DNA of 16,233 bases from Candidatus Eiseniibacteriota bacterium (GTDB lineage: Bacteria > Eisenbacteria > RBG-16-71-46), in the NCBI GenBank assembly GCA_044222065.1, contig JBGAOA010000029.1, positions 2,835 to 19,067 on the forward strand. The letters are read 5' to 3'. The translations under genes and the position numbers were made by a program. Below are positions 1-16,233 of the stretch, in pieces. The notes beneath the pieces were generated by a model. That model was not told where the DNA came from. It did no database searches and was given only the letters and a program-made list of their open reading frames with translations. How positions within the stretch are numbered: the stretch's first letter is position 1; each line of letters begins with the position of its first letter.

Positions 1-2823
1 CGCGACGCCCGCGAGCGGCGCGAGACGGCGTTCGGCGCCGATGCGCGCACGCTGGCGTCGCGCATCGCCGCGTTCCGGCTCGAATACGAGCGGTCCGCGG
101 ACCTCGCGATCGAAGTGTCGCGCTGGGCCGAGCGGCAGGTCCCGCCCGATTCGGGCCGACTCGCCGAAGCGGAGCACCTCGCCGCCGTCGCGCGGCAGTC
201 CCAGGGGCGGACGATGGAGGCGCGCGCCCACTTCGATCGCGCGGAATCGTGGATCCCGCTGCCGGCACCCCGCGCGCCTTCGACTGTCCCCCTGTTGTCG
301 GACCACGCGTTGTTCCTCTCCGAACTCGGCGAGCTCGACGAGGCCGAGCGCCTGATCCATCGCGCGCTCGTGCAGGCCGAGGGCACGAGTTCGAAGTCGG
401 CGATGCTCGAGAACGTGCTGTCCCGCCTCTCGACGATCCAGCTGCGCGGGGGAGACCTCGCGGAATCGGTCGAGACGGCGTGGCGCTCGTACGACGCCGC
501 GCTCCGGCGCACGGGGCCCGAAGGGGTCGCGACGCTGCTCGCGCGCGTGCGGCTCCACAACCGCCTGCTCGAATTCGAGGACTATCGCGGCGCGCTCGCG
601 GAGCAGCGCGACCTGCTGCCGCGCCTGACCCGCACGTTCGGCGACGCGCACCCGACCACGATCGGCGTACGGCTCTCGTACGCCGAGGTCCTCCTGCTGC
701 TCGGGGCGACGGACTCGGCGCGCGTCCACGTCTCGCTCGCTCGCGAGGCGATGCGCCGCCAGCCGCCCGCCGCTTCGAGCAATACGCTGTACGCCCCGAT
801 GCTCGAATCCCGTCTCGCGCGCGAGGCGAACGACTTCGCGAGCGCGCGCGCCCGTCTCCTCGACCCGCTCGCGATCGCGCGCGCGTTCGATCCGACGGGC
901 GATCGCGACGCCACGCTGCTGGTCGAGTACCTGAACGCGATCCGCACGCCCGCCGATTCCCTCGCCCTGCGCTTCGCGCTCGCCCACTCGGACACGCTCG
1001 CCGACTCGACCGCGATCGCGCGGAAGCCCGCGTGGGCGTTCGTGCTCGCGGCCCGCGCGCGCGCCGAACGCCGCGCCGGCTGGCACGAACGAGCGTGGCG
1101 CGATGCGCTCGAAGCCGACGAGCGTGCGTTCGCGGGCTTCCTGCAGCAAGTGCGCGCGCTGCCGGACGCCCGCGCGCTGCAGCTCGTCGGACGCCACGCC
1201 GAAGCCGTGGACGGCGTCGTCGCAACGGCGCCCGACGAAGGCCCCTCGAGCGCACTGCGGACGTGGGAACGCGTCGCGCGCTGGCGGACGCTCGTGCGCG
1301 ACGAGATCGCGCGGCGTCGCCCCGTCGCGGGCGCCGCGGACACGGCGATCACGGGCTCGCACGCACGCTGGGTCGCCGCGCGCCGCCGGCTCGCGCGCCT
1401 CGCCGTGAGCGGCGCCGCTCATCCCGACGATCCGGAGACTCGCGCGCGCTGGATGGCCGCGAGCGCCGACGCCGAGAACGCCGAACGCGCGTTCGCGCGT
1501 CTCGCCCGCGGCGCCGTGCTCCGCGCCCGGGACGACGCCAAGGCCGAGAGGCGCTCCGGGCCCCCGCGCCGCGAGGCGCTCGTCGGCTTCGCGATCGCGA
1601 CGACGACTTGGACCCTCGTCGCGTTCGTGTACCGGGCAGCCGACCCCGTCGTGCGCCGCATCGAGCTGGGCCCGGCGGAGCGCATCCGCGCCGCGCTCGC
1701 GGACTGGACCGAGCGACTCGGCGTCGTGCCCGGCCCCAGGGCAAGGCGCGATGAGGCGCTCGCGCGCGAACTCGGAGCGCGCGTTCGCGACCTCGTGTGG
1801 ACGCCGGTCGCGCGTGCGCTCGGGGCGGAGCGCGCCGTGTTCCTCGTTCCGGCCTCGCCGATCGAGGAACTGCCGTGGCTCGCGCTCCCCGCTCCGAACG
1901 ATCGCTACCTCGCCGACGACCCTCGCACGCTGCACGTGCTCGCGAGCGAGGCCGATGTGGCGCGTTCGCGCGCGGCGCCGCCCACTTCCGGCCTGCTCGC
2001 GATCGGCGATCCCGAATTCGCCACGGTTCGCCCCGGGGCGAAGTCCGACTCGCTTCGTGGCGGCCGCCTCGGGGAGCCTTGCCTGCGCGCCGTGCCGCCG
2101 CTCGGTTCGTTGCCCGGCACGCGCGAGGAAGCGCGCGCCATCGCCGCGCGCTGGTCCGAAGGCGGAGACGTGCGCGTGCTGATCGGCGCCGAGGCGCGCG
2201 AGGCCGACGTGAAACGGTTCGCGCCCGGCCGCCGCGTCCTGCACCTCGCGACCCACGGCATCGTGATCGGCGACGACTGCGATGCGGCGCTCGCGACGTC
2301 GCCCGGCGTTCGGGGCGTCGGCGGAGTGAGCCCCGTGGTCGCGAAGCCGAAGCGCGCCGCGGAGCGCCCGCGGCCCGAACCCGCCGCCGCATCGCCCTGG
2401 CTCGGCCGCCGCGTGTGGCTCGCGCTCGCCGGAGCGAACGCGAAAGCCGACTCTTCGGAAGACGAGAACGACGGACTGCTCACGGCCGAGGAAGTCTCGA
2501 CGCTCGACCTGCGCGACACCGACTGGGTCGTGCTCTCGGCGTGCCAGTCGGGCGCGCCGGAGGGCTGGTCGCGCGAAGGCGTGCTCGGCGTGCGGCGCGC
2601 GTTCCATCTCGCCGGGGCGAATGCCGTGATCGCGAGCCGCTGGCCGGTCTCGGACGACGCGACGCGCGCGTGGATGCTCGCGCTCTACGCCGCGCGCGCG
2701 CACACGCACTCGGCGAGCGAAGCGGTGCGCGAAGCGTCACGCGCCGTTCTCGCCGACCGCCGCGCGCGCCGCGCGAGCACGCATCCCTTCTGGTGGGCGG
2801 CGTTCGCGGCGAGCGGGGACTGA
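1..2823 (+). CDS. TPR-like repeat + C-terminal CHAT (caspase-like, clan CD) protease; 5'-truncated by the window edge
   Basis: Frame 1 is open from base 1 to TGA 2821-2823, so the GTG at 115 is probably not the true start. CHAT hallmarks: LVWTPV, LPWLALP, LPGTREEA, HLATHG (catalytic His, codon 2254), DGLLTAEEV, VVLSACQSG (catalytic Cys, codon 2542), AGANAVIASRWPVSD, HPFWWAAF. The N-terminal part is helical and TPR-like (FGDAHPTT). Confidence 0.92.
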   Translation, partial: RDARERRETAFGADARTLASRIAAFRLEYERSADLAIEVSRWAERQVPPDSGRLAEAEHLAAVARQSQGRTMEARAHFDRAESWIPLPAPRAPSTVPLLSDHALFLSELGELDEAERLIHRALVQAEGTSSKSAMLENVLSRLSTIQLRGGDLAESVETAWRSYDAALRRTGPEGVATLLARVRLHNRLLEFEDYRGALAEQRDLLPRLTRTFGDAHPTTIGVRLSYAEVLLLLGATDSARVHVSLAREAMRRQPPAASSNTLYAPMLESRLAREANDFASARARLLDPLAIARAFDPTGDRDATLLVEYLNAIRTPADSLALRFALAHSDTLADSTAIARKPAWAFVLAARARAERRAGWHERAWRDALEADERAFAGFLQQVRALPDARALQLVGRHAEAVDGVVATAPDEGPSSALRTWERVARWRTLVRDEIARRRPVAGAADTAITGSHARWVAARRRLARLAVSGAAHPDDPETRARWMAASADAENAERAFARLARGAVLRARDDAKAERRSGPPRREALVGFAIATTTWTLVAFVYRAADPVVRRIELGPAERIRAALADWTERLGVVPGPRARRDEALARELGARVRDLVWTPVARALGAERAVFLVPASPIEELPWLALPAPNDRYLADDPRTLHVLASEADVARSRAAPPTSGLLAIGDPEFATVRPGAKSDSLRGGRLGEPCLRAVPPLGSLPGTREEARAIAARWSEGGDVRVLIGAEAREADVKRFAPGRRVLHLATHGIVIGDDCDAALATSPGVRGVGGVSPVVAKPKRAAERPRPEPAAASPWLGRRVWLALAGANAKADSSEDENDGLLTAEEVSTLDLRDTDWVVLSACQSGAPEGWSREGVLGVRRAFHLAGANAVIASRWPVSDDATRAWMLALYAARAHTHSASEAVREASRAVLADRRARRASTHPFWWAAFAASGD

Positions 2824-3212: not shown

Positions 3213-4361
3213 CTACTCGACGTTCGTGTGCGTCTCGAGGCGGTGCCGGATCGTGCCGAACGCGAAGCTCGCCGACAGCCCGCCGCCGAAGCCGATCAGG
3301 CCGAAGCGGGTGCCGGGTGACAGCTCGCCCGGATTGAGCGCGAGCGCGAGCGGGATCGAAGCGCTCGTCGTGTTCCCGAAGCGGCCCGAGGCGTTGATCA
3401 CGCGACCCTTGAAGCCGCGTTCCCGCCACAGCCGGACGATCGAGTCGTTCAGCGTCAGGTTCGCTTCGTGCAGTGCGACGAGGTCCACCGAATCGAACGG
3501 CCAGTTCGCCTTCGCGAGCGCGGCTTCGATCGCGGGCCCGCCGACGAACGGCACGAGCGTTTCGCGCACGGCCGCGCCGTCCATCTTGAGCCGGTGCTCC
3601 CCGGCGGCGCGCTCCCAGATGGAGGGCGAAGGATGTCGCGAGCCGCCCGCGGGCGTGAGAATCGTCGCCGCGCGGCTGCCGTCCATCCAGCCCCAGAACT
3701 GGGAGGGCGCGAACCAGTCCTCTTCGGCGGGCACGGCGGCGCAGATCGTGGCCGTGCCGGCGTCGCCGAGCACCGTCGCGAAGCTGCGATCGCGCCAGTT
3801 GATCGCGGAGCTCATCCGGTCCGCGCCGACGAGGAGGATCCGCCTCGCGAGCCCGCCGCGGATGAGGCCGTAGCAGAGCCGCAGCGCGGACACCCAGCTC
3901 GAGCACGCGAGCGAGACGTCCGCGCCGTGGAGTTCACGCGGCGCGGCGGCCTGCCAGGCGGGAATGCCGAGCTCGTGCTGGAGCAGCGCCGCGTCCGGAG
4001 GGCTGTAGAGATAGGTGGGCGTCACGCTCGCGACGATCACCGAATCGACGTCGGCGGCACGCGTCCCCGAGTGATCGAGCAGCAGGCGCGCCGCGCGGGC
4101 GGCGAGGTCGGCCGTGCCTTCCCCCTCGCGGCAGAAGCGCCGCTCGCCGAAGCCGATGAAGCGGCGCACCCAGCGGTCGCTCGTCTCGAACAGCTTCGCT
4201 TCGGCTTCGGCGAGCCCGCCCGCGCCGCTGTCCGTGCGCTGAGCGCGCAGGCGCATGCGCTCGAGCCGCAGCCGCGCGGCGACTCGCGCGTTGCTCCAGG
4301 CATCCTCGGGAACGTAGGCGGCAAGTCCCTCGAGGCGCATGCCGGCGACGTCGGCGTTCAC
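3213..4361 (-). CDS. 3-oxoacyl-ACP synthase III (FabH/KAS III) family condensing enzyme, probably a non-housekeeping paralog
   Basis: Cys-His-Asn triad contexts DVSLACSSW, LHEAN and FGNTTSASIPLAL, plus GFGGG, ETSDRWV and LGDAG. GGAGGT Shine-Dalgarno lies just upstream of GTG 4361. Confidence 0.9.
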   Translation of the reverse strand: MNADVAGMRLEGLAAYVPEDAWSNARVAARLRLERMRLRAQRTDSGAGGLAEAEAKLFETSDRWVRRFIGFGERRFCREGEGTADLAARAARLLLDHSGTRAADVDSVIVASVTPTYLYSPPDAALLQHELGIPAWQAAAPRELHGADVSLACSSWVSALRLCYGLIRGGLARRILLVGADRMSSAINWRDRSFATVLGDAGTATICAAVPAEEDWFAPSQFWGWMDGSRAATILTPAGGSRHPSPSIWERAAGEHRLKMDGAAVRETLVPFVGGPAIEAALAKANWPFDSVDLVALHEANLTLNDSIVRLWRERGFKGRVINASGRFGNTTSASIPLALALNPGELSPGTRFGLIGFGGGLSASFAFGTIRHRLETHTNVE

Positions 4362-4535: not shown

Positions 4536-4769
4536 CTATCCGAGGAGCGGCTTCAATTGCTCCGCCGAGGGCACGCGCCCCGCCAATCGGAGCACGCCAT
4601 TGACGACGAGCGCCGGCGTCGAGAGCACGCCGTATCCGGCGATCGCCGCCACGTCCGTCACCTTCCGCAGTTCGTACTCGATGCCGAGTTCGCGGACGGC
4701 CCGTTCGGCGTGCGCGTAGAGCGCGTCGCACCGGGCGCAGCCGGGGCCGAGCACTTCGATCCGAATCAC
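4536..4769 (-). CDS. Small redox-active disulfide protein (thioredoxin-like, MTH895 type)
   Basis: 77 aa with IEVLGPGCARC (CxxC), YGVLSTPALVVNG and GRVPS. AAGGAG RBS precedes the GTG. Last gene of the ars operon, a usual context for this family. Confidence 0.92.
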   Translation of the reverse strand: MIRIEVLGPGCARCDALYAHAERAVRELGIEYELRKVTDVAAIAGYGVLSTPALVVNGVLRLAGRVPSAEQLKPLLG

Positions 4770-4806
4770 TTTTCGATCTCCTTCGCGAGCGCGGGCGGCC
4801 GCGCGC

Positions 4807-5904
4807 TCAGAGGATCCAGTTGAAGAGGTAGCCGACGAGCACGATGCCCGCGGCGACGATGGCGATGAAGGTTCCGATGAGCCGGGGGCGAAGCACCTTG
4901 CGCAGGATGATCATCTCGGGCAGCGAGAGCGCGATCACCGACATCATGAACGCGAGCACCGTGCCGAGCGCGGCGCCCTTCTCGATCAGCGCGTGCACGA
5001 CGGGCAGGATGCCGGCCGCGTTCGAGTACATGGGAACGCCGACGAGCACGGCGAGCGGCACCGACCACCACGCGCCTTCGCCCATGAGCGCGGCGAGGAA
5101 GTTCTCGGGCACCCAGCCGTGGATGCCGGCGCCGACCGCGATCCCGGCGAGCAGGAACGGCCACACCTTGCCGACGACGTCGCGCACCGCGTCGAGTCCC
5201 GCGAGCAGGCGCTCGTGAAAGCCCGGCGGACCCGCGTCCCCGGCGCCCGCGACGGCGCGCACGTCGTACACCCACGGCTCGACGTGACGTTCGAGCCCGA
5301 GCCGGCCGAGGACCCAGCCCGCGACGATCGCGACGATCAGGCCGGTGACGAGGTAGAGCCCGGCCACCTTCCAGCCGAAGAGGCCGAAGAGCAGTGCGAG
5401 CGCGACTTCGTTGACCATCGGCGCCGCGATCAGGAACGAGAACGTGACGCCGAGCGGGATCCCGGCCGTGAGGAAGCCGATGAACAGCGACACCGCCGAA
5501 CAGGAACAGAACGGCGTCACGGTTCCGAGCGCGGCGGCGAGCACGTTGCCTGCGGCCTCGGACTTGCCCGCGAGCACGGCGCGCGTGCGTTCGGGCGTGA
5601 AGAACGTGCGCACGACGCCGACGCAGAACACGACGAGCGTGAGCAGCATCGTGACCTTCGGAGCGTCGTAGGCGAAGAACTCGACCGCCGCACCGAGGTG
5701 CGAGCCGCGCGCGAGCCCGAGCGCGCCGTAGGCGATCCAGCGCTAGAACGCGGGCAGCGTGGCGTAGAGCGCGACCCACAGCGCGAGCGCGGCCGCGAGG
5801 CCCGCACGCAGCCGCGCCGGGGCGACACCCGCGAACGGGCCCGCGGGCAGGACGGTGAGCCCGATTGGGGCGGCCGCGGCGGGCTTACCGGCGCTCGCGC
5901 TCAC
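4807..5904 (-). pseudogene. ArsP/DUF318-family permease interrupted by one in-frame TAG at 5743-5745 (nonsense mutation or sequence error)
   Basis: Family motifs TPFCSCS, PMVNE, GVPMYSNAAG and ALSLPE. One frame runs from GTG 5904 (GTGA overlap with the acr3 stop) through ...LYATLPAF*RWIAYGALGLARGSHLGAAVEFFAYDAPKVTMLLTLVVF... to TGA 4807-4809, giving 365 codons. The track ORF 4807..5649 is only the part after the stop. Confidence 0.8.
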
Positions 5905-6995
5905 GGCGCCGCCGCCGGCCCGGCCGCCTCGCCGGGCGCGGCGCCGAAGAACCGGCGCCGGAACCACAGCGCGACGTGCACGAGCCCGATGAGCGCCGGC
6001 ACTTCGACGAGCGGACCGATGACGGCCGCGAACGCGGCGCCGTGCGCGAGGCCGAAAGTCGCGACCGCGACCGCGATCGCGAGTTCGAAGTTGTTCGACG
6101 CGGCGGTGAACGACAGCGTCGCGGACTGCGGGTAGTCGGCCCCGACCGCGCGGCTCAGGAAGAAGGACACGCCGAACATCACGGCGAAGTAGACGAGCAA
6201 CGGGACCGCGATGCGCACGACGTCGAACGGGAGCTGCACGATGCTCCCGCCCTTGAGCGAGAACATGACGACGATCGTGAAGAGCAGCGCGACGAGCGTG
6301 ATCGGGCTCACGGCGGGGACGAAGCGGCGCTCGTACCACTCGCGGCCCCGGAGCGCGATCAGCGAGAAGCGCGACACGACGCCCGCGAGGAACGGAACGC
6401 CGAGGTAGATGAACACGCTGCGCGCGATCTCGCCCATCGTGATGCGGACCACGACGCCCTCGAGTCCGAACCACGCCGGAGCCACGGTGAGGAACAGGTA
6501 GGCGTAGACGGGGAAGAACAGCACCTGGAAGACGGAGTTGAACGCGACGAGCCCGGCGCAGTACTCGGGATCGCCGCTCGCGAGGTCGTTCCACACGATC
6601 ACCATCGCGATGCAGCGGGCGAGCCCGATGAGGATCAGGCCGGTCATGTACTCGGGCCGGTCGCGCAGGAACGCGACCGCGAGCGCGAACATCAGCGCCG
6701 GGCCGATGACCCAGTTCTGGAGCAGCGAGAGCAGCAGCACGCGTGCGTTACGGAACACGCGGCCCATCGATTCATAGCGGACCTTCGCGAGCGGCGGATA
6801 CATCATGAGGACGAGTCCGACCGCGATCGGCACCGACGTCGTGCCGGCATTGAACCGGTTGAGGAACGTCACGAAGCCCGGAAAGTTCGCTCCAACGCCG
6901 ACGCCGACCGCCATGGCGAGGAAGATCCACAGCGTGAGGTAGCGGTCGAGGAACGAGAGCCGGCCTCCCACGCCGGACGCGGCGTACCGGCTCAC
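5901..6995 (-). CDS. acr3: Acr3-family arsenite efflux transporter
   Basis: [60 protein letters not shown] and GPLVEVP. The start is placed at GTG 6995 (GTGA overlap with the arsC stop) rather than the track's 7193. Confidence 0.96.
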
Positions 6996-7423
6996 GGCCA
7001 GGCCTCGTCGGCTGGAGATCCCGCGAGCGCGGTCGCCACGAGCGCGCCGACGAGCGTCTCGATGCGGTCGCGCACGGCGCGAAAGCCCCCGTCGTCGAGG
7101 TGCTTCGGGTCGGACAGTTCCCAGTCGAGCCGGTGCCGGGCCGGAAGCGAGGGGCAGGCGTCGCCGCAGCCCATCGTGACGATCCAGTCCCACTCGACGC
7201 GCGGCAGGTCGCCGAGCCCCTTGGAATGCTGGCTCGCGAGGTCGACGCCCTTCTCGCGCATGAACTGGATCGCGCGCGGGTTGATCCGTCCGGACGGACG
7301 CGAGCCCGCGCTGAACGCGGCAATGCGCCCGCGCCCGTGCGCGCGCGCGAAGCCCTCCGCCATCTGGGAGCGGTTCGAGTTCTCGATGCAGACGAACAGG
7401 AGATGGGGGAGCGCGTCAGCCAC
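6992..7423 (-). CDS. arsC: Arsenate reductase, LMW-PTPase fold
   Basis: CX5R P-loop [21 protein letters not shown], distal cysteines in TMGCGDACP, and DW..DP. Lies between arsR and acr3 with overlapping ends. Confidence 0.9.
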
Positions 7424-7838
7424 GGGCGCGCGCCCTTCGCGCGGGCCGCCGGCCGGCCGGGCGTGCCGGCATCGGGCGCTTCGCTGCCGGGAGCGCGCAC
7501 AGTTCGACGAGGGGAATCGCCGCGATCTCGCGCAGGCGCCTGCGGTCCGCGAGCACGGCCGTGTCGCGATCGAGACCCGTGAGCAGCGCGAGGATCCGGC
7601 TCGCGTGCGGATTGTGTGACTCGGGCGCGAGCGCGTATTCGATCCACTTGCCGCTGCGGCGGTCCTCGACGAGCCCCGCGTGCTTCAGGATCGTGAGGTG
7701 CTTCGAGATCGTCGAGGGCGCGAGGCCGAGCACCGACTGCACCTGGCACACGCACAGACCGCCGCGCTCGAGCAGCTTGAGGATGCGGGTCCGCGTCGGA
7801 TCGCTCACGGCCTTCATCGCCAGTTCGAAGTCACGCAC
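7416..7838 (-). CDS. arsR: ArsR/SmtB-family metalloregulatory repressor
   Basis: KAVSDPTRTRIL, LCVC metalloid-binding box, HTH STISKHLTILKHAGLV, and GKWIEY wing. GGAGG RBS precedes GTG 7838. First gene of the operon. Confidence 0.93.
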   Translation of the reverse strand: MRDFELAMKAVSDPTRTRILKLLERGGLCVCQVQSVLGLAPSTISKHLTILKHAGLVEDRRSGKWIEYALAPESHNPHASRILALLTGLDRDTAVLADRRRLREIAAIPLVELCALPAAKRPMPARPAGRRPARRARARG

Positions 7839-8644: not shown

Positions 8645-10231
8645 CTACATCATGTACGCCTCGACGATGTCGTCGTTCTCGATGAAGTAGAGCATGTTCT
8701 CGACTTCGTCCACGACGTACACGGGCGTTTTCTCGTTCAGGGCGGCGCTCGAGATCAGCTTGCCGTCCATCCGGCCCACGCGCGCGATCCCGGAGACCTT
8801 CTTGCCGTTCGGACCCGGCACCATCGTGAGGATGTAGAGCGACGTCGCCGACTCCATCGACGCGCGGAAGCGCTTCCCGAGGAGCGGATTCGAGGCCACG
8901 TAGTAAGTCTGGTCGCGGCCGTAGCGCTGTGCGCGGTCGTAGGCGGAGCCGGCGGCGGCCGCGTTCACCGCGGCGGTGAGCAGCCCGGCGCCCAGCTTGG
9001 CCCAGCCGCTCGTGCTCGGCGCTTCGTAGTAGGCGCGAACGATTTCCTTTCCGCTTGCATCGAGGCGCAGGAGCGTCTGGTTCGACGTCATCAGCGTGCC
9101 GCCGTCCTCGAGCAGCTCGAGGTTGCTCGGAACCTCGCCCTCCTTGAACTTGAACTTGGCGAGAATCCGGTCGGCGCCCTGCGCGAGCGACACTTCGTGC
9201 ACTTCGTTGTCCGCGCAGATGTAGAGGTTGTCGCCCTTCATGTCGAACGACGTGGCGTCCTGGAGATCCTTGAACGGCTTCGCCCATACCGACTCGCCGG
9301 TCTTCGGATTCAGGCAGTCGATGAAGGGCTTGCCCGCGATCTTGCCGTCGTCCTTCACGTACGGCGCGCCGCGCACGACGAGCCCCGCCGCGGACATGCC
9401 CATCTGCACGGGGCGGCCACGGAAGTCCTTCTCCTTCGCCCACAGGAGTGCGCCCGTCTTCGCGTCGATCGCCTGAACGCTCTTCTCGTAGGGAACGTAA
9501 ATCACTCCATCCTTCGCCCACATCGCGCAGAAGCCGTAGTTGAGCGCGGCCGGCGTCTTGCCTTTGAGGCCCGCGCACACCCACTTCTTCTCGCCGGTGT
9601 TGACGTCGATGCACACCGGACCGTCCTCGGTCACCCACAGCACCAGGCTCTCGTCGTCGGGAAACGCGGGCGGCTGGTTGCCCGCGACCGACTGGCGCTT
9701 GAACAGCTTTCCGCTGCCCTTCACCTCGTGAAGCAGCAGGTACTTGTCGAACAACTTGTCCTGCTGCCACTTGATCTCGCCGGTCTCGGTGTCGAGTCCC
9801 ACGAGCGTCGGCTTCTGGCCCGTCTTCACCGTGCCGAACACGACCAGCATCCGCTTGTGCGCAATCTGGAACTGGCCCTGCGAGTTCTTGAAGGGGAGTT
9901 TCGACGAATCCCACTTCGTCTTTCCGGTCTCGAGGTCGATCACCTCGAACTGTTTGCCGTCGAGAAGCGCGTACGGAGTGTTTTCGATCTCGTCGTAGCT
10001 GCATTCCTTGAGCTTCGCGAGGTCGGCGCGTTCCCACAGGACCTTTCCGGTCGCGGGGTCCAGGGCCGTCACTGCTTGCGAATGACTGACGACCAGCGAG
10101 CCGAGTGAGGAAACCTTCTGGAACTGGATCTCTCCGGCCTTGAAGGACCACGCAGGGTCCCCGGCCTGGGCGCTGGTCACGATCACGGCCAACAATGGGG
10201 CGGTGAACGCTACTCGAAGCACTCGATGCAT
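8645..10231 (-). CDS. Secreted PQQ-binding-like (BamB-like) beta-propeller repeat protein
   Basis: Signal-peptide-like N-terminus ending in AQA. Repeated blade motifs ALDPATGKVLW, IDLETGKTKW, LDTETGEIKW, IDVNTGEKKW, IDAKTGALLW and LNPKTGESVW. Confidence 0.85.
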   Translation of the reverse strand: MHRVLRVAFTAPLLAVIVTSAQAGDPAWSFKAGEIQFQKVSSLGSLVVSHSQAVTALDPATGKVLWERADLAKLKECSYDEIENTPYALLDGKQFEVIDLETGKTKWDSSKLPFKNSQGQFQIAHKRMLVVFGTVKTGQKPTLVGLDTETGEIKWQQDKLFDKYLLLHEVKGSGKLFKRQSVAGNQPPAFPDDESLVLWVTEDGPVCIDVNTGEKKWVCAGLKGKTPAALNYGFCAMWAKDGVIYVPYEKSVQAIDAKTGALLWAKEKDFRGRPVQMGMSAAGLVVRGAPYVKDDGKIAGKPFIDCLNPKTGESVWAKPFKDLQDATSFDMKGDNLYICADNEVHEVSLAQGADRILAKFKFKEGEVPSNLELLEDGGTLMTSNQTLLRLDASGKEIVRAYYEAPSTSGWAKLGAGLLTAAVNAAAAGSAYDRAQRYGRDQTYYVASNPLLGKRFRASMESATSLYILTMVPGPNGKKVSGIARVGRMDGKLISSAALNEKTPVYVVDEVENMLYFIENDDIVEAYMM

Positions 10232-10478
10232 CCCGGTCTGTCTCCCGTTGGAGGTGTGATGGAGCCCCGCCGGGAGTCTCCCGACGGGGCCGAGCGCGGC
10301 AGACTAGTCGAAATGACCGCCTTTCGGCGAGGCGACGAGTCGTCGTGCTCGGCGAACCGTCGACGCGCTTCACCGCCACCCGCGGTCGGGACCGCGTCGT
10401 CGGATTGGCCGTATGATGCGCCGACGCTGCGGCGGCACGTGCGCGCCCGGCGGCTCCCCGATCTCAAGGAGCATCCCC

Positions 10479-11150
10479 GTGACGACCATCCCCTCCTTCG
10501 GCGAGAACGTCGAGGCGTATCCGGTTCCCGTGCTCAACGAGCGCGAGATCCGCGCCGCGGCGGGGATCCTGTTCCTCGCGACGTTCCTGTCGCTGCTGTT
10601 CATCCTGTTCGACAACAACTTCCTTCCCATCCGCTTCGTGATCCCGGTGTTCCTCGCGGACTTCCTCGTCCGCGTGCTCGTGAGCCCGCGCTACTCGCCG
10701 ACGCTGATCCTCGGGCGGCTCATCGTCGGGAACCAGACGCCGGAGTACGTCGCCGCCGCCCCGAAGAAGCTCGCGTGGACGATCGGCATCGCGCTCTCGG
10801 CGCTGATGTTCGTGCTCATGGTGCTCCTGAACACGTACGGCCCGGTCAGCGGCATCACGTGCCTCGTGTGCCTGATCTTCCTGTTCTTCGAGTCGGCGTT
10901 CGGCATCTGCCTCGGCTGCAAGTTCTACGGTCTCGTGTACCGCAGGCCGCCCACGCTCTGCCCGGGGGAGGTGTGCGACGTGAAGTCACGACAATCGATC
11001 CAGCGCACGTCGGCCGCTCAGTGGCTCGTGCTGCTCGCGGCCGTCGTGCTCGTCGTCGCGGCATCGTTCGCGTTCTCGAAGCGATTCTCGGCGCCCGCGC
11101 GCCCGTTGTTCGGCGAGGCGACGGCCGCGACGTTCGAGTCGCGCGCGTGA
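10479..11150 (+). CDS. DUF4395-like integral membrane protein
   Basis: NEREIRAAAG, PKKLAWTIG, LFFESAFGICLGC and CPGEVC, with several hydrophobic helices. AAGGAG RBS supports GTG 10479 over the track's 10413. Confidence 0.8.
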   Translation: MTTIPSFGENVEAYPVPVLNEREIRAAAGILFLATFLSLLFILFDNNFLPIRFVIPVFLADFLVRVLVSPRYSPTLILGRLIVGNQTPEYVAAAPKKLAWTIGIALSALMFVLMVLLNTYGPVSGITCLVCLIFLFFESAFGICLGCKFYGLVYRRPPTLCPGEVCDVKSRQSIQRTSAAQWLVLLAAVVLVVAASFAFSKRFSAPARPLFGEATAATFESRA

Positions 11151-11175: not shown

Positions 11176-13572
11176 GTGGTGACGCCCGGTGGCGGACTGT
11201 TCGCGCCCGGCGAGCTGCTCGCGGGCCGCTTCCGCATCGTGCGGGAGATGGCCCGCGGCGGAATGGGCGTCGTCTACGAAGCCCGCGACGAGAAGCTGGA
11301 CCGGCGCGTCGCGATCAAGGCCGCGCTCTCGGGCCACGCGCGCCTGCTGTCGCCCGAGGTGCGGAACGCGAGCGCCGTGAGCCATCCCAACGTCTGCCGG
11401 ATCTTCGAACTCCACACGGCACGCTCCGCGGCCGGCGAAGTGGACTTCATCACGATGGAGTTCCTGGAAGGGGAGACGCTCGCGCACCGCATCGCGAGCG
11501 GCCCGCTCGCAGACTCGGAAGCGCGCGCGATCGGGCTCCAGCTCTGCGCCGGGCTCGCCGAGGCGCACCGCAATCACGTCGTGCACGGCGACCTGAAGCC
11601 GCAGAACGTCCTCCTGAGCCGCGCGCCCGATGGCGCCGTGCGCGCGGTGCTCATGGACTTCGGCCTCGCCCGCGGCCCGAACCAGCGCGGCGCGTTGGGC
11701 GGAACGCCGGGCTACATGGCGCCCGAACTGCTCGCGGGCGGGAACGCCTCGGTGGCCTCGGACCTCTACGCGCTCGGCGTGATCCTGCACGAACTCGTCT
11801 CCGGCCTGCGCCCGCGCGAGCGCGCCGCGGAACTCGCGCCGACGGTGACCGTCTCCGACGACGCGACGCGGGCGGAACCCGGCGGGGCCGCGCCCTGGGC
11901 GCAGCCGCCGCCGCTGCCCCTCGGGCGGCGCTGGGATCCGATCCTCCGCCGCTGCCTCGCGGAGGATCCGGACGCGCGCTTTCGCGACGTCGCCGAGCTG
12001 CAGCGCGCGCTCGACCCGCCGCGCGGGCGCGGCGCCCTGCTCGCTGTTGCGCTCGTGCTCGTGGCCGCGGCGGTGGGATTCGCGTACTGGCGGGTCACGG
12101 CCCCCGCGACGACGGTGAAGCTCGCGGTGCGATCGTCCGTCGAAGCAAAGGACGCGCTCGCGGCGCTCCGCGGCACGCGGACGCGCGGCTACCGCATCGT
12201 GCACGACGCGGGTGACGCGACGCACGTCCTGAGCGTCGAGGGCGGGGGCGCGGGTGACACGACGCTCGCCGTCGAGCTGACCGACGCGCGCACGCGGGCC
12301 ACGGTCGCGCGCTGGAAGCGCGCTTACGCGGCGGACGAGCGGCGCTACGCGCCGGCGGCGATCGCAGGTGTCGTGAGCGCGGCGCTGCACCTCACGCCGC
12401 CGCCGCAGCGCTTCCGCAGCGCCGAGGCGCGCGCGCTCTACGAACGCGCCCTGCCGCTGCTCCGGCGCGACGAACTCGTGGATTCCGCGCGCACGCTCAT
12501 GCTCGCCGCCGCGGCCGCCGAGCCGTCCTCGCCGCTGCCGTGGGCGGGCGCCGCCGAGGCCGAGTGGCGCCAGTACTACCTTCGCTCCACCGACGACTGG
12601 CTGGCGCGGGCGCGCGAGTCGGTCCGCCGCGCCGAGTGGCGCGGCCTCGACACGCCCGAGGTGCACCGCATCGCGGGTCAGCTCGAAACGAAGGACGGCC
12701 GGTTCGCGCAGGCGATCGAGCGCTTCGTGCGGGCGACCGAGCTGCCGAGCGCGAACTCCGACGCGTGGCGCCGGCTCGGGGACGCCTACCGGCGCAACAA
12801 CCAGCCCGAGCTCGGACTCAACGCACTGCGCAAAGCCGTCGAGATCGAACCCGACTTCTACCGCAACCACCAGGAGCTGGGCTCGTGGTTCTTCAACCGC
12901 GGCGACTACCGCGCGGCCATTCCCGAGCTGCGGACGGCCGTGACGCTCGCGCCGGACATGGCGCGGCTGCGCTCGGTGCTCGCGTCGGCGCTCATGAACG
13001 TTGGCGAGTTCGCCGACGCGGAGCGGGAGCTGCGCACGGTGCTGTCGCAGCGCGAGGAATCCACCGTCCTGCATTCCCTCGGACAGGTGCTCATGTACCA
13101 GTCGCGCGATCGCGACGCGGCGCCGTTCTTCCGGCGCGCGATCGAGCTCGACAGCACGCTGTTCCTGAGCGGGCTCTACCTGGGCGACTGCCTGCGGTCG
13201 ATGGGAGCGCCCGCCGATGCCCGCGCCGCGTACGCGCGCAGCTTCGCCGTGGCCGAGCGCAACGTCCGGCAGTCGCCCCAGAGCGGCTACTACCGCGCGT
13301 TCCTCGCGCACCTGTGCGCGCGGCTCGGCGACGTGGCGCGCGCCGAAGCCGAGATCGCGCAGGCCCTGCGATCGTCGCCCGACCAGGCGGACGTGCTTTG
13401 GGAGGCGGCGCTGACGTATGAGATGGTCGGCCGCCGAGACGACGCCGTCGCGGTTCTCGCGACGATGCCGCGCGGCGTCCTCGAAGACCTGTCCCGCTGG
13501 CCGGCCGCGGCATCGCTCGTGCGGGACGAACGCTTCCGCCCGCTGTTGCAGGCCTCATCGCAGGCGCCGTGA
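11176..13572 (+). CDS. Hanks-type Ser/Thr protein kinase with one TM helix and C-terminal TPR repeats
   Basis: ARGGMGVVY, VAIK, HPNVC, HGDLKPQNV, DFGLA, GTPGYMAPE and SDLYALG. TM segment GALLAVALVLVAAAVGFAYW (12031-12090). TPR-like units such as AWRRLGDAY...ALRKAVEIEPDF and LHSLGQVL...FRRAIELDS. GAGGTG RBS upstream. Confidence 0.93.
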   Translation: MVTPGGGLFAPGELLAGRFRIVREMARGGMGVVYEARDEKLDRRVAIKAALSGHARLLSPEVRNASAVSHPNVCRIFELHTARSAAGEVDFITMEFLEGETLAHRIASGPLADSEARAIGLQLCAGLAEAHRNHVVHGDLKPQNVLLSRAPDGAVRAVLMDFGLARGPNQRGALGGTPGYMAPELLAGGNASVASDLYALGVILHELVSGLRPRERAAELAPTVTVSDDATRAEPGGAAPWAQPPPLPLGRRWDPILRRCLAEDPDARFRDVAELQRALDPPRGRGALLAVALVLVAAAVGFAYWRVTAPATTVKLAVRSSVEAKDALAALRGTRTRGYRIVHDAGDATHVLSVEGGGAGDTTLAVELTDARTRATVARWKRAYAADERRYAPAAIAGVVSAALHLTPPPQRFRSAEARALYERALPLLRRDELVDSARTLMLAAAAAEPSSPLPWAGAAEAEWRQYYLRSTDDWLARARESVRRAEWRGLDTPEVHRIAGQLETKDGRFAQAIERFVRATELPSANSDAWRRLGDAYRRNNQPELGLNALRKAVEIEPDFYRNHQELGSWFFNRGDYRAAIPELRTAVTLAPDMARLRSVLASALMNVGEFADAERELRTVLSQREESTVLHSLGQVLMYQSRDRDAAPFFRRAIELDSTLFLSGLYLGDCLRSMGAPADARAAYARSFAVAERNVRQSPQSGYYRAFLAHLCARLGDVARAEAEIAQALRSSPDQADVLWEAALTYEMVGRRDDAVAVLATMPRGVLEDLSRWPAAASLVRDERFRPLLQASSQAP

Positions 13573-13622
13573 GCGGCGCTCGAACGTCACCGCAAGGCAC
13601 TCCCATCCCGGAGGGAACACCC

Positions 13623-13877
13623 ATGAGCGCAAGGAAGAAGGCGTCGAAGAAGTCCCGCAAGAGCTCCGCGCTGAAGGGCGGGGGCGGAAACCTCCCGAGC
13701 AGCGGCGACCTCGGTGGCGGCGGCGGCAACCTGCCTTCGAGCGGGGATCTCGGCGGCGGGAGCGGATGGCGCAAGCCGGCGAAGAAGCGCTCGAGCGCGA
13801 AGAAGACCACGCGCAAGGCGGCGAAGAAGAAGGCGGTCCGACGGAAGGCCGCGCGGAAGTCCGCGAAGCGACGCTGA
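13623..13877 (+). CDS. 84-aa Lys/Arg-rich protein with two internal GGGGNLPSSGDLG repeats (histone-H1-like arms; candidate precursor peptide)
   Basis: GGAGGG RBS before ATG 13623 (alternative GTG 13569 overlaps the kinase stop). 28 of 84 residues are K/R, and all Lys codons are AAG. Repeat copies differ only synonymously in this frame. The stop is 3 nt before the next ATG. Confidence 0.8.
   Translation: MSARKKASKKSRKSSALKGGGGNLPSSGDLGGGGGNLPSSGDLGGGSGWRKPAKKRSSAKKTTRKAAKKKAVRRKAARKSAKRR
13677..13754 (+). repeat. Two tandem 39-bp units encoding identical 13-aa peptides
   Basis: 13677-13715: ggc ggg ggc gga aac ctc ccg agc agc ggc gac ctc ggt. 13716-13754: ggc ggc ggc ggc aac ctg cct tcg agc ggg gat ctc ggc. 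There are 10 nt differences and 0 amino-acid differences. Confidence 0.95.
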
Positions 13878-13880
13878 TCG

Positions 13881-14483
13881 ATGAGCCGCGAGGGATCGGC
13901 GCCCGCGCCGACCGAACCTCGACGCCTCGGCGTGCCGCTGCGGAAGCAGCAGGCGTCGGAGTGGTGCTGGGCCGCCGTCTCGCAGGCGATCGACCGCTTC
14001 TACGATCCCGAATCGGATCTGCAGCAGTGCCGGATCGTCGGCGGCGCGCTCCATCGCGCGTGCTGCGGCAAGGGTGACGCGCCGGGGCCCGATGACGCGT
14101 GCAACCGTCCCGGCTACCTGCACCTCGTGCTCGACGGACTCGGACTGCTCGTGAAATCGGACGACGATCCGAGGTCGGGTGCGATCCAGGGTCCGGTGTC
14201 GTTCGACCGGCTGCGTCGCGAGATCGACCACGGCCGGCCCGTGTGCGTGCTCATCAAGTGGCGCGGCGGCGGCGGCCGCGGCCACTTCATCCTGATCGAA
14301 GGCTACTCGGTGTCGGCATCGCGGACGCCCTACGTGTACGTGAGGAATCCGATGTCCCCGAGGTCCAGCTCGCGTCATCCGTACGACGTGATCGCGTCGC
14401 AGGGGAGCGATGGCGGCTACCAGGACGGGCAGGGCGTGTGGGCGTACTCGTTCCTCGTCCGTCCCCGCGCAGGGAAGTCCTGA
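13881..14483 (+). CDS. Papain-like (clan CA; C39-like/C70-like) cysteine protease, stand-alone, no signal peptide
   Basis: Q23-x5-C29 in KQQASEWCWAA, EIDHGRPV, His135 in GGGGRGHFILIEGY, and Asn156 in VYVRNP. Additional Cys cluster C50/C61/C62/C74. Confidence 0.85.
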   Translation: MSREGSAPAPTEPRRLGVPLRKQQASEWCWAAVSQAIDRFYDPESDLQQCRIVGGALHRACCGKGDAPGPDDACNRPGYLHLVLDGLGLLVKSDDDPRSGAIQGPVSFDRLRREIDHGRPVCVLIKWRGGGGRGHFILIEGYSVSASRTPYVYVRNPMSPRSSSRHPYDVIASQGSDGGYQDGQGVWAYSFLVRPRAGKS

Positions 14484-14485
14484 GC

Positions 14486-15052
14486 GTGCCGCTCCTGTTC
14501 GTGGCGCCCACGTCCGCCGTGCTCGCGACCTACGCCGCGGGGCTGCTCGACCTCACGGGGACGCCGCCGCCCGACGAGGGCGCGATCCACGTGCCCGTGT
14601 GGACGATCGACCTCGAGTCGATCGCGAACGGCGTCGGCGCCGAGAACGAGCAGTCGTCCGGCTGCCGCTTCTACGCTTCATATCCGCCACCGCTCGGAAC
14701 GCTGTCGAGCGAGATGACGAATCCGTCCGACTACGGGAAGGCGAAGTTCCGCAGCCTCCTCGACGGCGAACTCGCGGAGTGGGGCTGGAGCCGCATCCAG
14801 CAGATCCGATCGCTGCGGGAGCTCGCCCGCGCCGACTACGAGCTGCACCTCCTGAGTCTCCCGAGCCTGTTCGCGGAGGCGTTCTACCTGCGGGCCGCGG
14901 AGAGCGAAGGGGGACACCTCGTCGTGCCGCTCGACCTGTTCGCCGAAGGGCTGGCGCCTCCCGCGGCGCAGGATGTCGCGGCGTACCTGGCCGCGCTGCG
15001 GCCGGCCGCGCGAGCGCGCAGAGCGACGGTAGAGGATCCACTGCTGCCGTGA
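14486..15052 (+). CDS. Hypothetical protein (188 aa), probable partner of the papain-like protease
   Basis: GTG 2 nt after the protease stop. Globular-looking composition with GC3-rich codons (HVPVWTIDL, GCRFY, YELHLLSLPSLFAEAFYL, LVVPL). The track's 5' extension to 14099 is off-frame shadow of the protease gene. Confidence 0.75.
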   Translation: MPLLFVAPTSAVLATYAAGLLDLTGTPPPDEGAIHVPVWTIDLESIANGVGAENEQSSGCRFYASYPPPLGTLSSEMTNPSDYGKAKFRSLLDGELAEWGWSRIQQIRSLRELARADYELHLLSLPSLFAEAFYLRAAESEGGHLVVPLDLFAEGLAPPAAQDVAAYLAALRPAARARRATVEDPLLP

Positions 15053-15074: not shown

Positions 15075-16232
15075 TCAGCGCTTGCCGACGTCCTCCAGCG
15101 GATCGCCGAGGATGGACTTGCCCGCGAGCGAGGTCGCCGCGCCGTAGAGCGCGATGCCGAGCAGCAGCGCCATCGGCAGCAGCACGAGCCCGGCGTACCA
15201 CGAGCCGAAGTCGAGCGTCGACGCGGTGCCGCCGAGCACGAGCGCCGTGAACGCGCCGGCGACGGTCGCGAGCAAGCCCAGCCGCACGACGACGACGAGG
15301 CTCACGACCTGCCAGAAGCCCCACACGAGCGCCAGCTTCCATCCGAGGTCCGGCGCGAGCCCGACGGCGGAGTAATAGAGGTAGAGCAGGCCCGCAACGG
15401 CGAGCGCGAGATCCGTACGACGCACGACGAGCCGCACGAGCAGGAGCACGAACAGCCACTGGAGGACGTTGAGCACGCAAATGGACCCGGCGTAGCACAT
15501 GCTCACCGCCGTGAATCCGGCGCTCCCGATCGCCTCGAACATGGTGCTGCTCGTCAGCGCAGGCACCGTGCCGAGTCCGAACCGCGGCGCGAGCGCAAAC
15601 GTCGCGATGCCGAGCGTCGAGATCACGGCGCCGAGGGCGACGCCCACGAGCAGGTCGCGGCCGACGAGCGGATCGCGCAGTCGTCCGGTCAGGAGCCGCG
15701 CCCACGACACGAGCACACGCGGCCACACCCGCCTCACGTAGGGTTCGAGCGCGACGTACGCGAACCACATGCCCATGGCGTGAATCAGCGCGTGACCCTG
15801 CGCGCGCCCCGAGAACACGTCGCGGAGCACGCCGACGATGCCGACCTCGGAGAGCCGCGTGGCGAACACCGCTTCGCCCACGTTCATGAGGAACACGAAC
15901 GCCGCGATGCGCGTCGCACCGCGCCAGTCGCCGCGCCCGAGCTGCAGGTTGCGCATCGCGAAGTAGAGCGCGAGCAGGTAGGGCGCGACGTCGAACAGGA
16001 ACTCGATCAGGAGGTCGCTCGCCTGCTTCGGCACCGGGCGCACGACGTCCACCGGAGTCGCCGGCACGCCCCACGGACTCACGACGGAGAAGTGCGTGAG
16101 GCGTCCGCGCGAGGCGCCCATCTGCACGGTCGCCGTGTCCGCGGCGTTCCACGGCGACGGTCCGCGCCACGCCATTGCGGTGTCGCACAGCGCGGGCACG
16201 GGGCGCGCGAGCGCGACCGGCGCGTACGCGGC
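15075..16232 (-). CDS. C-terminal multi-TM part of a membrane protein, resembling the membrane tail of some bacterial Ser/Thr kinases; 5'-truncated by the window edge
   Basis: The frame is open to the window end and has many hydrophobic helices. Motifs RNLQLGRGDWRGA, YVALEPYVRRVWP and SWARLLTGRLRDPLVGRDLLVG match my recollection of kinase-linked membrane domains. No kinase domain is visible inside the window. Confidence 0.7.
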   Translation of the reverse strand, partial: AAYAPVALARPVPALCDTAMAWRGPSPWNAADTATVQMGASRGRLTHFSVVSPWGVPATPVDVVRPVPKQASDLLIEFLFDVAPYLLALYFAMRNLQLGRGDWRGATRIAAFVFLMNVGEAVFATRLSEVGIVGVLRDVFSGRAQGHALIHAMGMWFAYVALEPYVRRVWPRVLVSWARLLTGRLRDPLVGRDLLVGVALGAVISTLGIATFALAPRFGLGTVPALTSSTMFEAIGSAGFTAVSMCYAGSICVLNVLQWLFVLLLVRLVVRRTDLALAVAGLLYLYYSAVGLAPDLGWKLALVWGFWQVVSLVVVVRLGLLATVAGAFTALVLGGTASTLDFGSWYAGLVLLPMALLLGIALYGAATSLAGKSILGDPLEDVGKR

Positions 16233-16233
16233 G

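Follow-up and report, generated by a model that had tools for sequence, protein, structure and literature searches.

The stretch of DNA analyzed here, a window of 16,233 nucleotides (nt) from the genome of a Candidatus Eiseniibacteriota bacterium (GCA_044222065.1, our genome G000; window G000:C61:2835-19067), contains a cassette of four genes that is real, rare, and conserved and that is apparently undescribed. The four open reading frames (ORFs) lie on the plus strand and encode, in this order, a membrane Ser/Thr kinase with a tetratricopeptide repeat (TPR) array, a small basic protein with two copies of a 13-residue unit, a papain-fold cysteine protease, and a partner protein. We tentatively propose, without giving it an even chance, that they form a self-contained peptide-signal cassette, in which regulated cleavage would release a strain-specific 13-mer and the kinase would perceive it through its TPR domain, predicted to face outward. 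Our gene lengths and intergenic gaps (50, 3, and 2 nt) agree with the preliminary description of this DNA, which also allowed a 4-nt overlap in place of the first gap; that overlap, with the kinase stop, results from an alternative GTG start of the small ORF at 13569. The third-position GC content is 0.87 to 0.92 in all four genes, which is the codon bias of the genome, versus 0.61 in the 18-codon extension that the alternative start would add. The ATG at 13623 is preceded by a GGAGGG ribosome site, which recurs before the orthologue on metagenome contig L006.

In a second genome (G008), from another genus of the same family, the same four genes are present in the same order, with gaps of 47, 21, and 1 nt. 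The flanks differ completely from those in G000, and neither the upstream DUF4395 gene nor the convergent downstream membrane kinase gene of G000 is common to the G008 locus. The kinases are 60% identical (over 795 amino acids [aa]), the proteases 56%, and the partners 61%; identity at third codon positions is 0.48 to 0.54, versus 0.71 to 0.76 at the first two. The linkage of protease and partner to a kinase-TPR gene and a repeat peptide, on which the preliminary description had staked its idea of a functional module, is thus seen again among orthologues. Metagenome contig L006 covers the final 102 codons of the kinase gene (77% identical), the whole peptide gene, and the first part of the protease gene. 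On contig L005, protease and partner follow a K/A-rich tail that is truncated at the contig end, and contig L007 carries a K/A-rich tail as in L005 and a partial protease. The locus scans used a narrow protease alignment (A1) and returned one genome locus and three metagenome loci, with Acidobacteriota-type proteases of 40 to 48% identity lying outside its scope. These belong to a second, large protease clade (about 185 aa) whose named members come from Acidobacteriota, Acidoferrales, Bryobacteraceae, and Limnocylindrales; one partner relative comes from Ca. Solibacter.

We surveyed 206 Eisenbacteria genomes, which are incomplete and, being kin, not independent (the unpublished genome G026 is counted solely within these tallies). 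The protease profile matched five genomes, closely only G000 and G008, and the partner profile matched those two. The DNA pattern of the 13-mer was found in three genomes, with two copies each in G000 and G008; the one match in G005 sits in an unrelated repeat protein and was discarded. The C-terminal half of the kinase was matched in 61 genomes (E ≤ 1e-15), with close orthologues in G008 and, as a broken and truncated copy of 59% identity, in G023, the rest being at most 36% identical. A close protease, the partner, an intact kinase orthologue, and paired 13-mers are therefore confined to the same 2 of 206 genomes. The G023 gene (L022, G023:C148:1-2364) is broken by an internal stop, has no TPRs, and runs into a FabF-like gene of convergent orientation; neither a peptide nor a protease gene was seen on that contig. 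An ATP-grasp gene lies 8 nt behind the G008 partner (L003 7721-8917, minus strand). It was rejected as a fifth cassette gene, as it has no close counterpart in G000, where matches elsewhere reach only 24 to 28% identity.

The small protein has a net charge of +26 and contains three [LM]-x-G-G-[GS]-G motifs, starting at residues 17, 30, and 43. Six units were read from the three complete precursors, namely GGNLPSSGDLGGG and GGNQGSGGDLTGG in two copies each and GGNPGVGSDMGGG and GGNPGTGSDMGGG in one copy each. They share the form GGN-x5-D-[LM]-x-GG, in which the ends, G-G-N and D-[LM]-x-G-G, are constant and the middle five residues vary between genomes. Two identical NLPSSGDL cores had been noted before; the repeat is real and identical at the protein level, but the repeated unit is the 13-mer rather than the 8-mer. 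Copies within a genome differ by 8, 9, and 4 synonymous and 0, 0, and 1 nonsynonymous codons, respectively, including a switch between the Ser codons AGC and TCG. When equal numbers of base changes were placed at random, in a simulation in which codon and transition bias were not modelled, the protein was kept as well in 0, 0, and 823 of 200,000 trials; for the G000 copies, this means 10 base changes with an unchanged protein in none of 200,000 placements. The 13-mer unit is under selection. Almost exclusively synonymous differences between copies, together with five residues that differ between genomes, are the pattern expected of a recognized, specificity-bearing peptide.

Five of the six units lie between two [LM]-x-G-G-[GS]-G motifs at a 13-residue spacing. 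The exception, the first copy in G008, starts Met-Gly-Gly-Asn at the first start codon after the preceding stop, and because only a cut after [LM]-x-G-G gives products in the register of this copy minus its initiator Met, we infer that this is where cutting occurs. Of the 3,759 coding-like G000 frames tested, 19 contain the motif once and none contains it twice (the filter excluded the peptide's own frame). At -4, before the Gly-Gly, the residue is Leu or Met in all 10 motifs, and residues further upstream belong to basic/Ser linkers or to the core. Where a basic linker precedes the motif, as in three cases, Ser is found at -2 and -6 relative to the [LM] residue, and in the remaining seven motifs position -1 is Asp or Glu; this pattern, from three related low-complexity sequences, is a lead for a phosphorylation-gated cut. 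The arms of the precursor differ in number, order, and length between orthologues while the unit is held, and K/A-rich tails are also found on ordinary G000 proteins such as ribosomal S16. A family search with the three-sequence alignment among 8,000 candidates gave no match at E ≤ 1, the three peptides are absent from the protein collection searched, and Atlas look-alikes for peptide and partner were all under 0.9. Judged from the peptide sequences, processing by the protease at the [LM]-x-G-G motifs is likely. The earlier suggestion of a precursor with its own protease thus gains from the selection on the unit and from the fixed bracketing motif. Its version as a phosphorylated ribosomally synthesized and posttranslationally modified peptide (RiPP), with Ser-Ser in the core as the kinase substrate, does not, as the orthologous cores NQGSGGD, NPGVGSD, and NPGTGSD have no fixed Ser/Thr position.

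The protease passes the Pfam cutoffs for Peptidase_C39_2 (28.5 bits, cutoff 24) and Peptidase_C70 (22.6 bits, cutoff 19) over short stretches, the C70 match being limited to residues 16 to 49. The catalytic Q/C/H/N set read from the sequence earlier was compared with 106 aligned relatives, in which Q23 is kept in 101, C29 in 103, and H135 in 106; at position 156, 10 of them have Asn and 96 have Asp. Four further conserved Cys residues lie at 50, 61, 62, and 74, and Arg133, two residues before the catalytic His, is present in 67 of 80 proteases with a clade insert versus 5 of 26 others. In VIA-align, the protease model (predicted local distance difference test [pLDDT] 94.8) lies nearest to staphopain C (Z 17.6, root mean square deviation [rmsd] 2.5, 161 aligned), with prostaphopain B at Z 15.2, C39 domains at Z 13.0 to 13.1, and AvrRpt2 at Z 9.7 (rank 38). 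CdiA-CT/CdiI (Z 11.3) and BtaeB/BtaiB (Z 10.3) are found lower in the list, which also includes UfSP and phytochelatin synthase. Foldseek gave E 2.8e-7 and a TM-score of 0.64 against staphopain. The modelled fold is staphopain-like and nearer to staphopain than to C39, and no transporter is present, so that the C39 label first attached to this protein is not supported. At the sequence level, no match to Peptidase_C47 was found at E ≤ 0.1, profile A1 found none among PDB sequences at E ≤ 1, and a C70 family search of the G000 genome gave no match. The protease has neither a signal peptide nor an N-terminal pro-region. C47, C70, C39, and C39_2 are grouped as close relatives (PMC10318531), and related papain-type RiPP proteases cut after Gly-Gly (PMC10885120).

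For the partner, described before as a 188-aa unknown, no Pfam, NCBIfam, or PADLOC family was found. A search of 50%-identity representatives gave 62 relatives at E ≤ 0.001; 55 were aligned, eight short or partial matches being left out, and none of the 55 gives a convincing Pfam match. The top row for its model (pLDDT 93.3) is the pro-region of staphopain B (1x9y residues 41 to 188, Z 4.8, rmsd 4.9, 124 aligned), a weak match, as Z values of this order are common. We count it only because both halves of one zymogen surface from two adjacent genes. 1x9y was absent from the top 1,000 Foldseek entries given a second look with VIA. The idea that the partner is a copy of part of the protease was dropped, since the partner shows no homology to the protease profile. 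The protease-partner co-fold scored 0.91, and the best of three controls scored 0.00; this mark is reached by 116 of 157 solved versus 2 of 215 mismatched pairs, a calibration that is roughly applicable here, since the alignments were our own. At least 92% of contacts are shared between runs, and the partner keeps a pLDDT of at least 88. The modelled interface includes C29, W30, and the loop 124-136, in which H135 lies, as well as strand 161-167, which pairs with partner residues 88 to 97. From this model, it is very likely that the partner binds the protease; the co-fold supports binding, not inhibition. Protease and partner are probably a split zymogen, with the partner as a candidate trans-encoded pro-domain or inhibitor. 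Thr78 of the partner was considered as a phospho-site, but Ser/Thr at this position in 15 of 21 near-clade versus 12 of 34 other rows (by eye) is too weak.

The pair also occurs without the rest of the cassette. At 4 of the 14 distant protease loci that we examined (on Nocardia, Azospirillum, Rhizobium, and Burkholderia plasmids), the next gene matches the partner profile, with E values from 1e-39 to 8e-12. At 8 others (three Eisenbacteria, Bacillus, two Streptomyces, Streptantibioticus, and Embleya), the adjacent gene has a hydrophobic N-terminus and falls below significance against the partner profile; four of these genes pooled gave a profile match of 51% probability and E 1.6e-4. The remaining two loci are viral contigs, on which no partner was seen; no member of the second protease clade was found on viral contigs, and the one viral match to the unit pattern, in a tape-measure-like gene, was taken as chance. 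None of the 14 loci showed a kinase or a 13-mer unit (by regular expression for L009-L017 and by eye for L056-L060). At several of them, both the protease gene and the gene in the partner position encode hydrophobic N-termini (by eye). The pair, which occurs without kinase or peptide in other phyla, is therefore an older module that was recruited into the cassette. In Nocardia (L012 2912-4468), the protease is fused N-terminally to Trp-rich tandem repeats, and in Rhizobium (L015 2388-3875) it is fused C-terminally to a propeller-like repeat region; both lack a signal peptide and have the partner gene next. At L057-L060, an actinobacterial secreted-type protease is followed by a partner-position gene whose product ends in a hydrophobic tail and an Arg run, resembling a surface anchor (by eye).

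The kinase is, as predicted, a kinase-membrane-TPR protein, with a Pfam Pkinase match of 117 bits, TPR families, and a single transmembrane segment. Its catalytic motifs are intact, and its loop is of the non-RD type (HGD at residues 137 to 139), as in the G008 and G023 orthologues and 3 of 17 matched kinases of G000. The membrane segment is preceded by RGR here and by RRRR in G008 (Kyte-Doolittle 2.04 in G008). By the positive-inside rule, these basic residues predict a kinase domain inside and a TPR domain outside the cell. Identity to the G008 kinase is 69% in the core, 51% in the post-membrane segment, and 62% in the TPRs. The peptide, protease, and partner genes are single copy in G000, whereas the kinase has many paralogues.

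How might these four proteins work together? Protease and partner would first form a heterodimer. In the model of this complex, the partner covers the active site, as if the pro-domain of a zymogen were encoded by a gene of its own. Freed protease would then cut after each [LM]-x-G-G, releasing identical 13-mers, and the basic arms would be discarded. In the weakest step, the lineage-specific 13-mer would leave the cell without a dedicated exporter, perhaps upon damage or lysis, and bind the TPR domain of the kinase; that the 13-mer is the kinase ligand has, in our estimate, slightly less than an even chance. More speculatively, the kinase might feed back in the cytoplasm by phosphorylating precursor or partner, which would license more cutting. 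We think it unlikely, though worth stating, that the whole is a danger or kin circuit like PROPEP-PEPR, in which the kinase would phosphorylate a linker Ser or the trans pro-domain, the split-zymogen protease would then cut (possibly cyclize) the leaderless multicopy peptide, and the lineage-specific 13-mer would activate the same kinase on neighbours.

Several observations weigh against the peptide-signal proposal. The TPR domain is predicted to be outside, and no signal peptide was found on peptide, protease, or partner. No conserved exporter travels with the cassette in G000 and G008; the single G000 peptidase-containing ABC transporter (PCAT) belongs to a lanthipeptide cluster, and in G008 there is no more than a weak match to C39, in a frame of 271 aa. 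Export of the 13-mer by a PCAT is not supported. Only three complete precursors are available, all beside close proteases (at least 56% identical), and the visible 53 residues of the truncated L005 peptide contain no unit. Staphopains are not known to be Gly-Gly specific, and the cut motif was read from the peptide, not from the enzyme. The protease-partner pair without kinase or peptide in other phyla also means that the peptide is not an obligatory substrate of the family. Regarding the partner, YpmB (Z 4.7) and BLIP-like folds (4.4 to 4.6) tie with the pro-region, with cystatins next; Foldseek gave no match at E ≤ 0.001, and the Pfam hidden Markov model Staphopain_pro (PF14731) did not match. 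A partner that covers the active site could be an activator or a substrate adaptor rather than an inhibitor, and the co-fold pass may partly reflect likeness to solved zymogen or cystatin complexes. The G000 lanthipeptide-like cluster (contig C9, about 60000 to 67500, by eye) is of class I and includes dehydratase-like and cyclase-like genes, the PCAT exporter, and a 51-aa precursor rich in Cys, Ser, and Thr.

Other explanations give the same genes different roles. The protease could be a transpeptidase, with the acyl-enzyme formed at x-G-G being resolved by the unit's own N-terminal Gly-Gly, giving a cyclic 13-mer, or by a target lysine, giving a Gly-Gly tag without E1/E2; the partner would then be an adaptor, and the kinase would regulate the reaction or sense the cyclic product. 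Each predicted product does start with Gly-Gly and end in [LM]-x-G-G, a geometry like that of sortase-type ligation and ubiquitin-like C-termini. The invariant Asn and Asp, six residues apart, would lie on opposite sides of a ring, the precursor arms are Lys rich, and the structural cluster that holds these proteases includes ubiquitin-like deconjugases and transferases (UfSP and phytochelatin synthase; PMC10318531). However, the transpeptidase activity is hypothetical, a staphopain-like fold with a Q/C/H/N set is what a plain hydrolase would have, and no tailoring enzyme is conserved, the G008 ATP-grasp gene included. We regard this possibility as unlikely. The same holds for an intracellular switch, an extension of the earlier idea that the small protein binds nucleic acid through its basic arms. 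Here the TPR domain would sense an unrelated outside cue, the kinase would phosphorylate the partner or the basic protein at the Ser residue preceding the N-terminal cut, and cleavage would free or inactivate the arms, for example in stress or abortive infection, the 13-mer being a spacer. Such a switch needs no export, and the kinase domain, precursor, protease, and partner all look cytoplasmic; the three linker motifs with Ser at -2 and -6, set against Asp or Glu in seven, look as if phospho-Ser replaced acid, and Arg133 of the insert-clade proteases and the non-RD loop of the kinase would suit it. Yet it leaves unexplained why the five variable residues are identical between copies despite 8 to 9 synonymous changes and why the arms vary between orthologues. 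In addition, K/A-rich tails are generic in G000, the Ser pattern comes from few and related sequences, and PADLOC returned generic kinase-domain matches only and nothing for the other three proteins.

Less probable still is that protease and partner are a toxin-immunity (effector-inhibitor) pair, with the small protein as decoy, competing inhibitor, or activating cofactor. The pair does occur by itself on plasmids, in some cases joined to repeat or lectin-like domains or in the vicinity of polymorphic-toxin genes, its distribution is patchy (2 of 206 genomes), the partner covers the active site in the model, and the fold list contains papain-fold toxins with immunity proteins, namely the CdiA-CT/CdiI and BtaeB/BtaiB entries. 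Against this, the protease has no delivery domain or signal, the hydrophobic N-termini on both genes at several distant loci fit a co-secreted pro-domain and not a cytoplasmic antidote, and no immunity family is listed for Tox-PLC39 in the accessible part of PMC3482391. The least probable explanation, and a very improbable one, is that a generic kinase-TPR protein, a histone-like basic protein, and a generic protease pair lie together by chance or inheritance with no shared pathway. Kinase-TPR genes are abundant (61 of 206 genomes), both cassette genomes belong to one family, and G023 has a truncated kinase without the cassette. But that orphan kinase is broken, the unit is under selection, and the four genes stay abutted in G000 and G008 although the flanks are entirely different and third codon positions are near saturation.

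The cassette is partly like double-glycine processing and a protease-inhibitor pair, and perhaps like peptide quorum sensing, but it lacks features by which PCAT, C47, C70, RRNPP, and cyanobactin systems are defined. Staphopain and prostaphopain (C47) have the closest solved protease fold, and the fold of the partner resembles the staphopain B pro-region best, though weakly. C47 enzymes are secreted pre-pro-enzymes with a pro-region in cis, whereas in the cassette the pro-like module is encoded by a separate downstream gene, there are no signal peptides, and identity is 6 to 13%. In staphopain-staphostatin and SpeB-Spi pairs, as here according to the model, the protease gene is directly followed by the gene of a predicted active-site binder; protease and inhibitor genes of this kind are co-transcribed (PMC3462683). 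Staphostatins are beta-barrels (PMC7863939), whereas the cassette partner is alpha/beta, and the cassette adds a linked kinase and repeat peptide. C70 AvrRpt2-type effectors differ by a full-length family match and by secretion into the host.

PCATs and ABC transporter maturation and secretion proteins (ComA-ComC, LahT, PCAT1), like the stand-alone C1A enzyme PoyH, combine a papain-fold enzyme with a small Gly-Gly precursor that has a hydrophobic -4 residue, as in the cassette. Here, however, the protease is a stand-alone protein of 200 aa without an ABC transporter and matches C39_2 and C70 in Pfam, not PF03412, whose matches in G000 and G008 lie elsewhere than the cassette. The motif flanks both ends of each core, and sensing would fall to a Ser/Thr kinase rather than to a histidine kinase. 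The amphipathic leader helix that LahT requires, hydrophobic at -7 and -12, is absent from the precursor (PMC10885120). Cyanobactin PatE and fungal Kex2-processed repeat proteins are multicore precursors, and the cassette likewise has repeated cores between fixed recognition sequences (six copies in three precursors). Unlike cyanobactins, it has no leader, no PatA/PatG subtilisin proteases, and no conserved tailoring enzymes in either neighbourhood; its spacers are K/R rich, and a receptor kinase lies alongside. With the RRNPP systems (Rap-Phr, PlcR-PapR, NprR-NprX), it shares a candidate TPR sensor adjoining the gene of a lineage-specific peptide. RRNPP sensors are cytoplasmic, and their peptides carry signal peptides and are re-imported. 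The RRNPP analogy drawn earlier is not supported here, as the TPR domain lies beyond the membrane segment of a Hanks-type kinase, no helix-turn-helix or phosphatase is present, and the peptide has no signal peptide. The plant PROPEP-metacaspase-PEPR system, which serves damage signalling, is an analogy only: it too has a leaderless, cytoplasmic precursor, a cysteine protease held inactive, and a surface receptor kinase, but precursor, protease clan, and sensor (leucine-rich repeats versus TPR) are not homologous, and PROPEP has a single core. Among the anti-phage systems of PADLOC 2.0, we found only generic kinase-domain matches and no families for the other three proteins. No published description of the cassette was found in the literature, searched mostly without subscription papers; the supplements of PMC3482391 and PMC10318531 could list the gene pair.

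Features of the four-gene cassette, in positions of the window
Feature	Position	Strand	Remarks
Membrane Ser/Thr kinase, 798 aa	11176..13572	+	Kinase domain at about aa 17-280, transmembrane segment, alpha/beta segment of about 100 aa, TPR array
Transmembrane segment of the kinase, aa 286-304	12031..12087	+	19-residue hydrophobic stretch, Kyte-Doolittle 2.38
Ribosome-binding site GGAGGG of the small ORF	13610..13615	+	From sequence; similar context before the L006 orthologue
Precursor, 84 aa	13623..13877	+	Basic N-arm, two tandem 13-mers, basic C-arm; orthologues L003/L004 and L006
13-mer copy 1, GGNLPSSGDLGGG, aa 21-33	13683..13721	+	Predicted product, from a putative cut after [LM]-x-G-G
13-mer copy 2	13722..13760	+	Identical to copy 1 in protein, with 8 synonymous codon differences
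Papain-fold cysteine protease, 200 aa	13881..14483	+	Staphopain-like fold (model); Q23/C29/H135/N156
Partner, 188 aa, unnamed family	14486..15052	+	Two-lobed cystatin/PepSY-like fold; predicted active-site binder

Scanning for promoters and terminators gave no sites. RNA reads (seven runs with 5 to 19% of words, four of them used) gave exact contigs at a depth of 2 to 5 over pieces of all four genes, and contigs span two junctions, kinase to peptide and protease to partner. Coverage of the flanks is no different, and carry-over of DNA is possible. The gene 25 nt upstream of the kinase encodes a DUF4395 membrane protein (10413-11150, plus strand). Downstream, the convergent Ser/Thr kinase gene (15075-16233, minus strand) ends 22 nt from the partner stop; the window holds the C-terminal multimembrane part, the gene continues on contig C61 past the window, and its product has an N-terminal zinc-ribbon-like motif. 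This gene is absent beside the G008 cassette. Further upstream, the window contains a PQQ-type beta-propeller protein gene of lower GC content, about 0.62 (8645-10231, minus strand); an arsenic-resistance-like operon (4536-7838, minus strand, by eye) with ArsR, an ArsC-type reductase, an ACR3-type permease, another permease, and a small thioredoxin-like protein; a FabH-like 3-oxoacyl-ACP synthase III with an unusual insertion near its N-terminus (3213-4361, minus strand, by eye); and a TPR-CHAT (caspase-like) protease (115-2823, plus strand, CHAT 184 bits), whose ORF extends upstream beyond the window.

We found no paper in the literature that gives kinase-membrane-TPR proteins a ligand. If the danger or kin circuit outlined above were real, the 13-mer would be the first ligand for the abundant orphan receptors of this type in Eisenbacteria and Acidobacteria. 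The cassette names a short synthetic peptide, its cognate receptor domain, and natural noncognate variants, and so opens the question to bench experiments. An enzyme with cutting or ligating activity at [LM]-x-G-G could, in addition, be useful as a tool. A trans-encoded pro-domain would explain why a partner family lies beside genes annotated as 'papain-like cysteine protease family protein' in several phyla and would link these pairs to the evolution of the staphopains.

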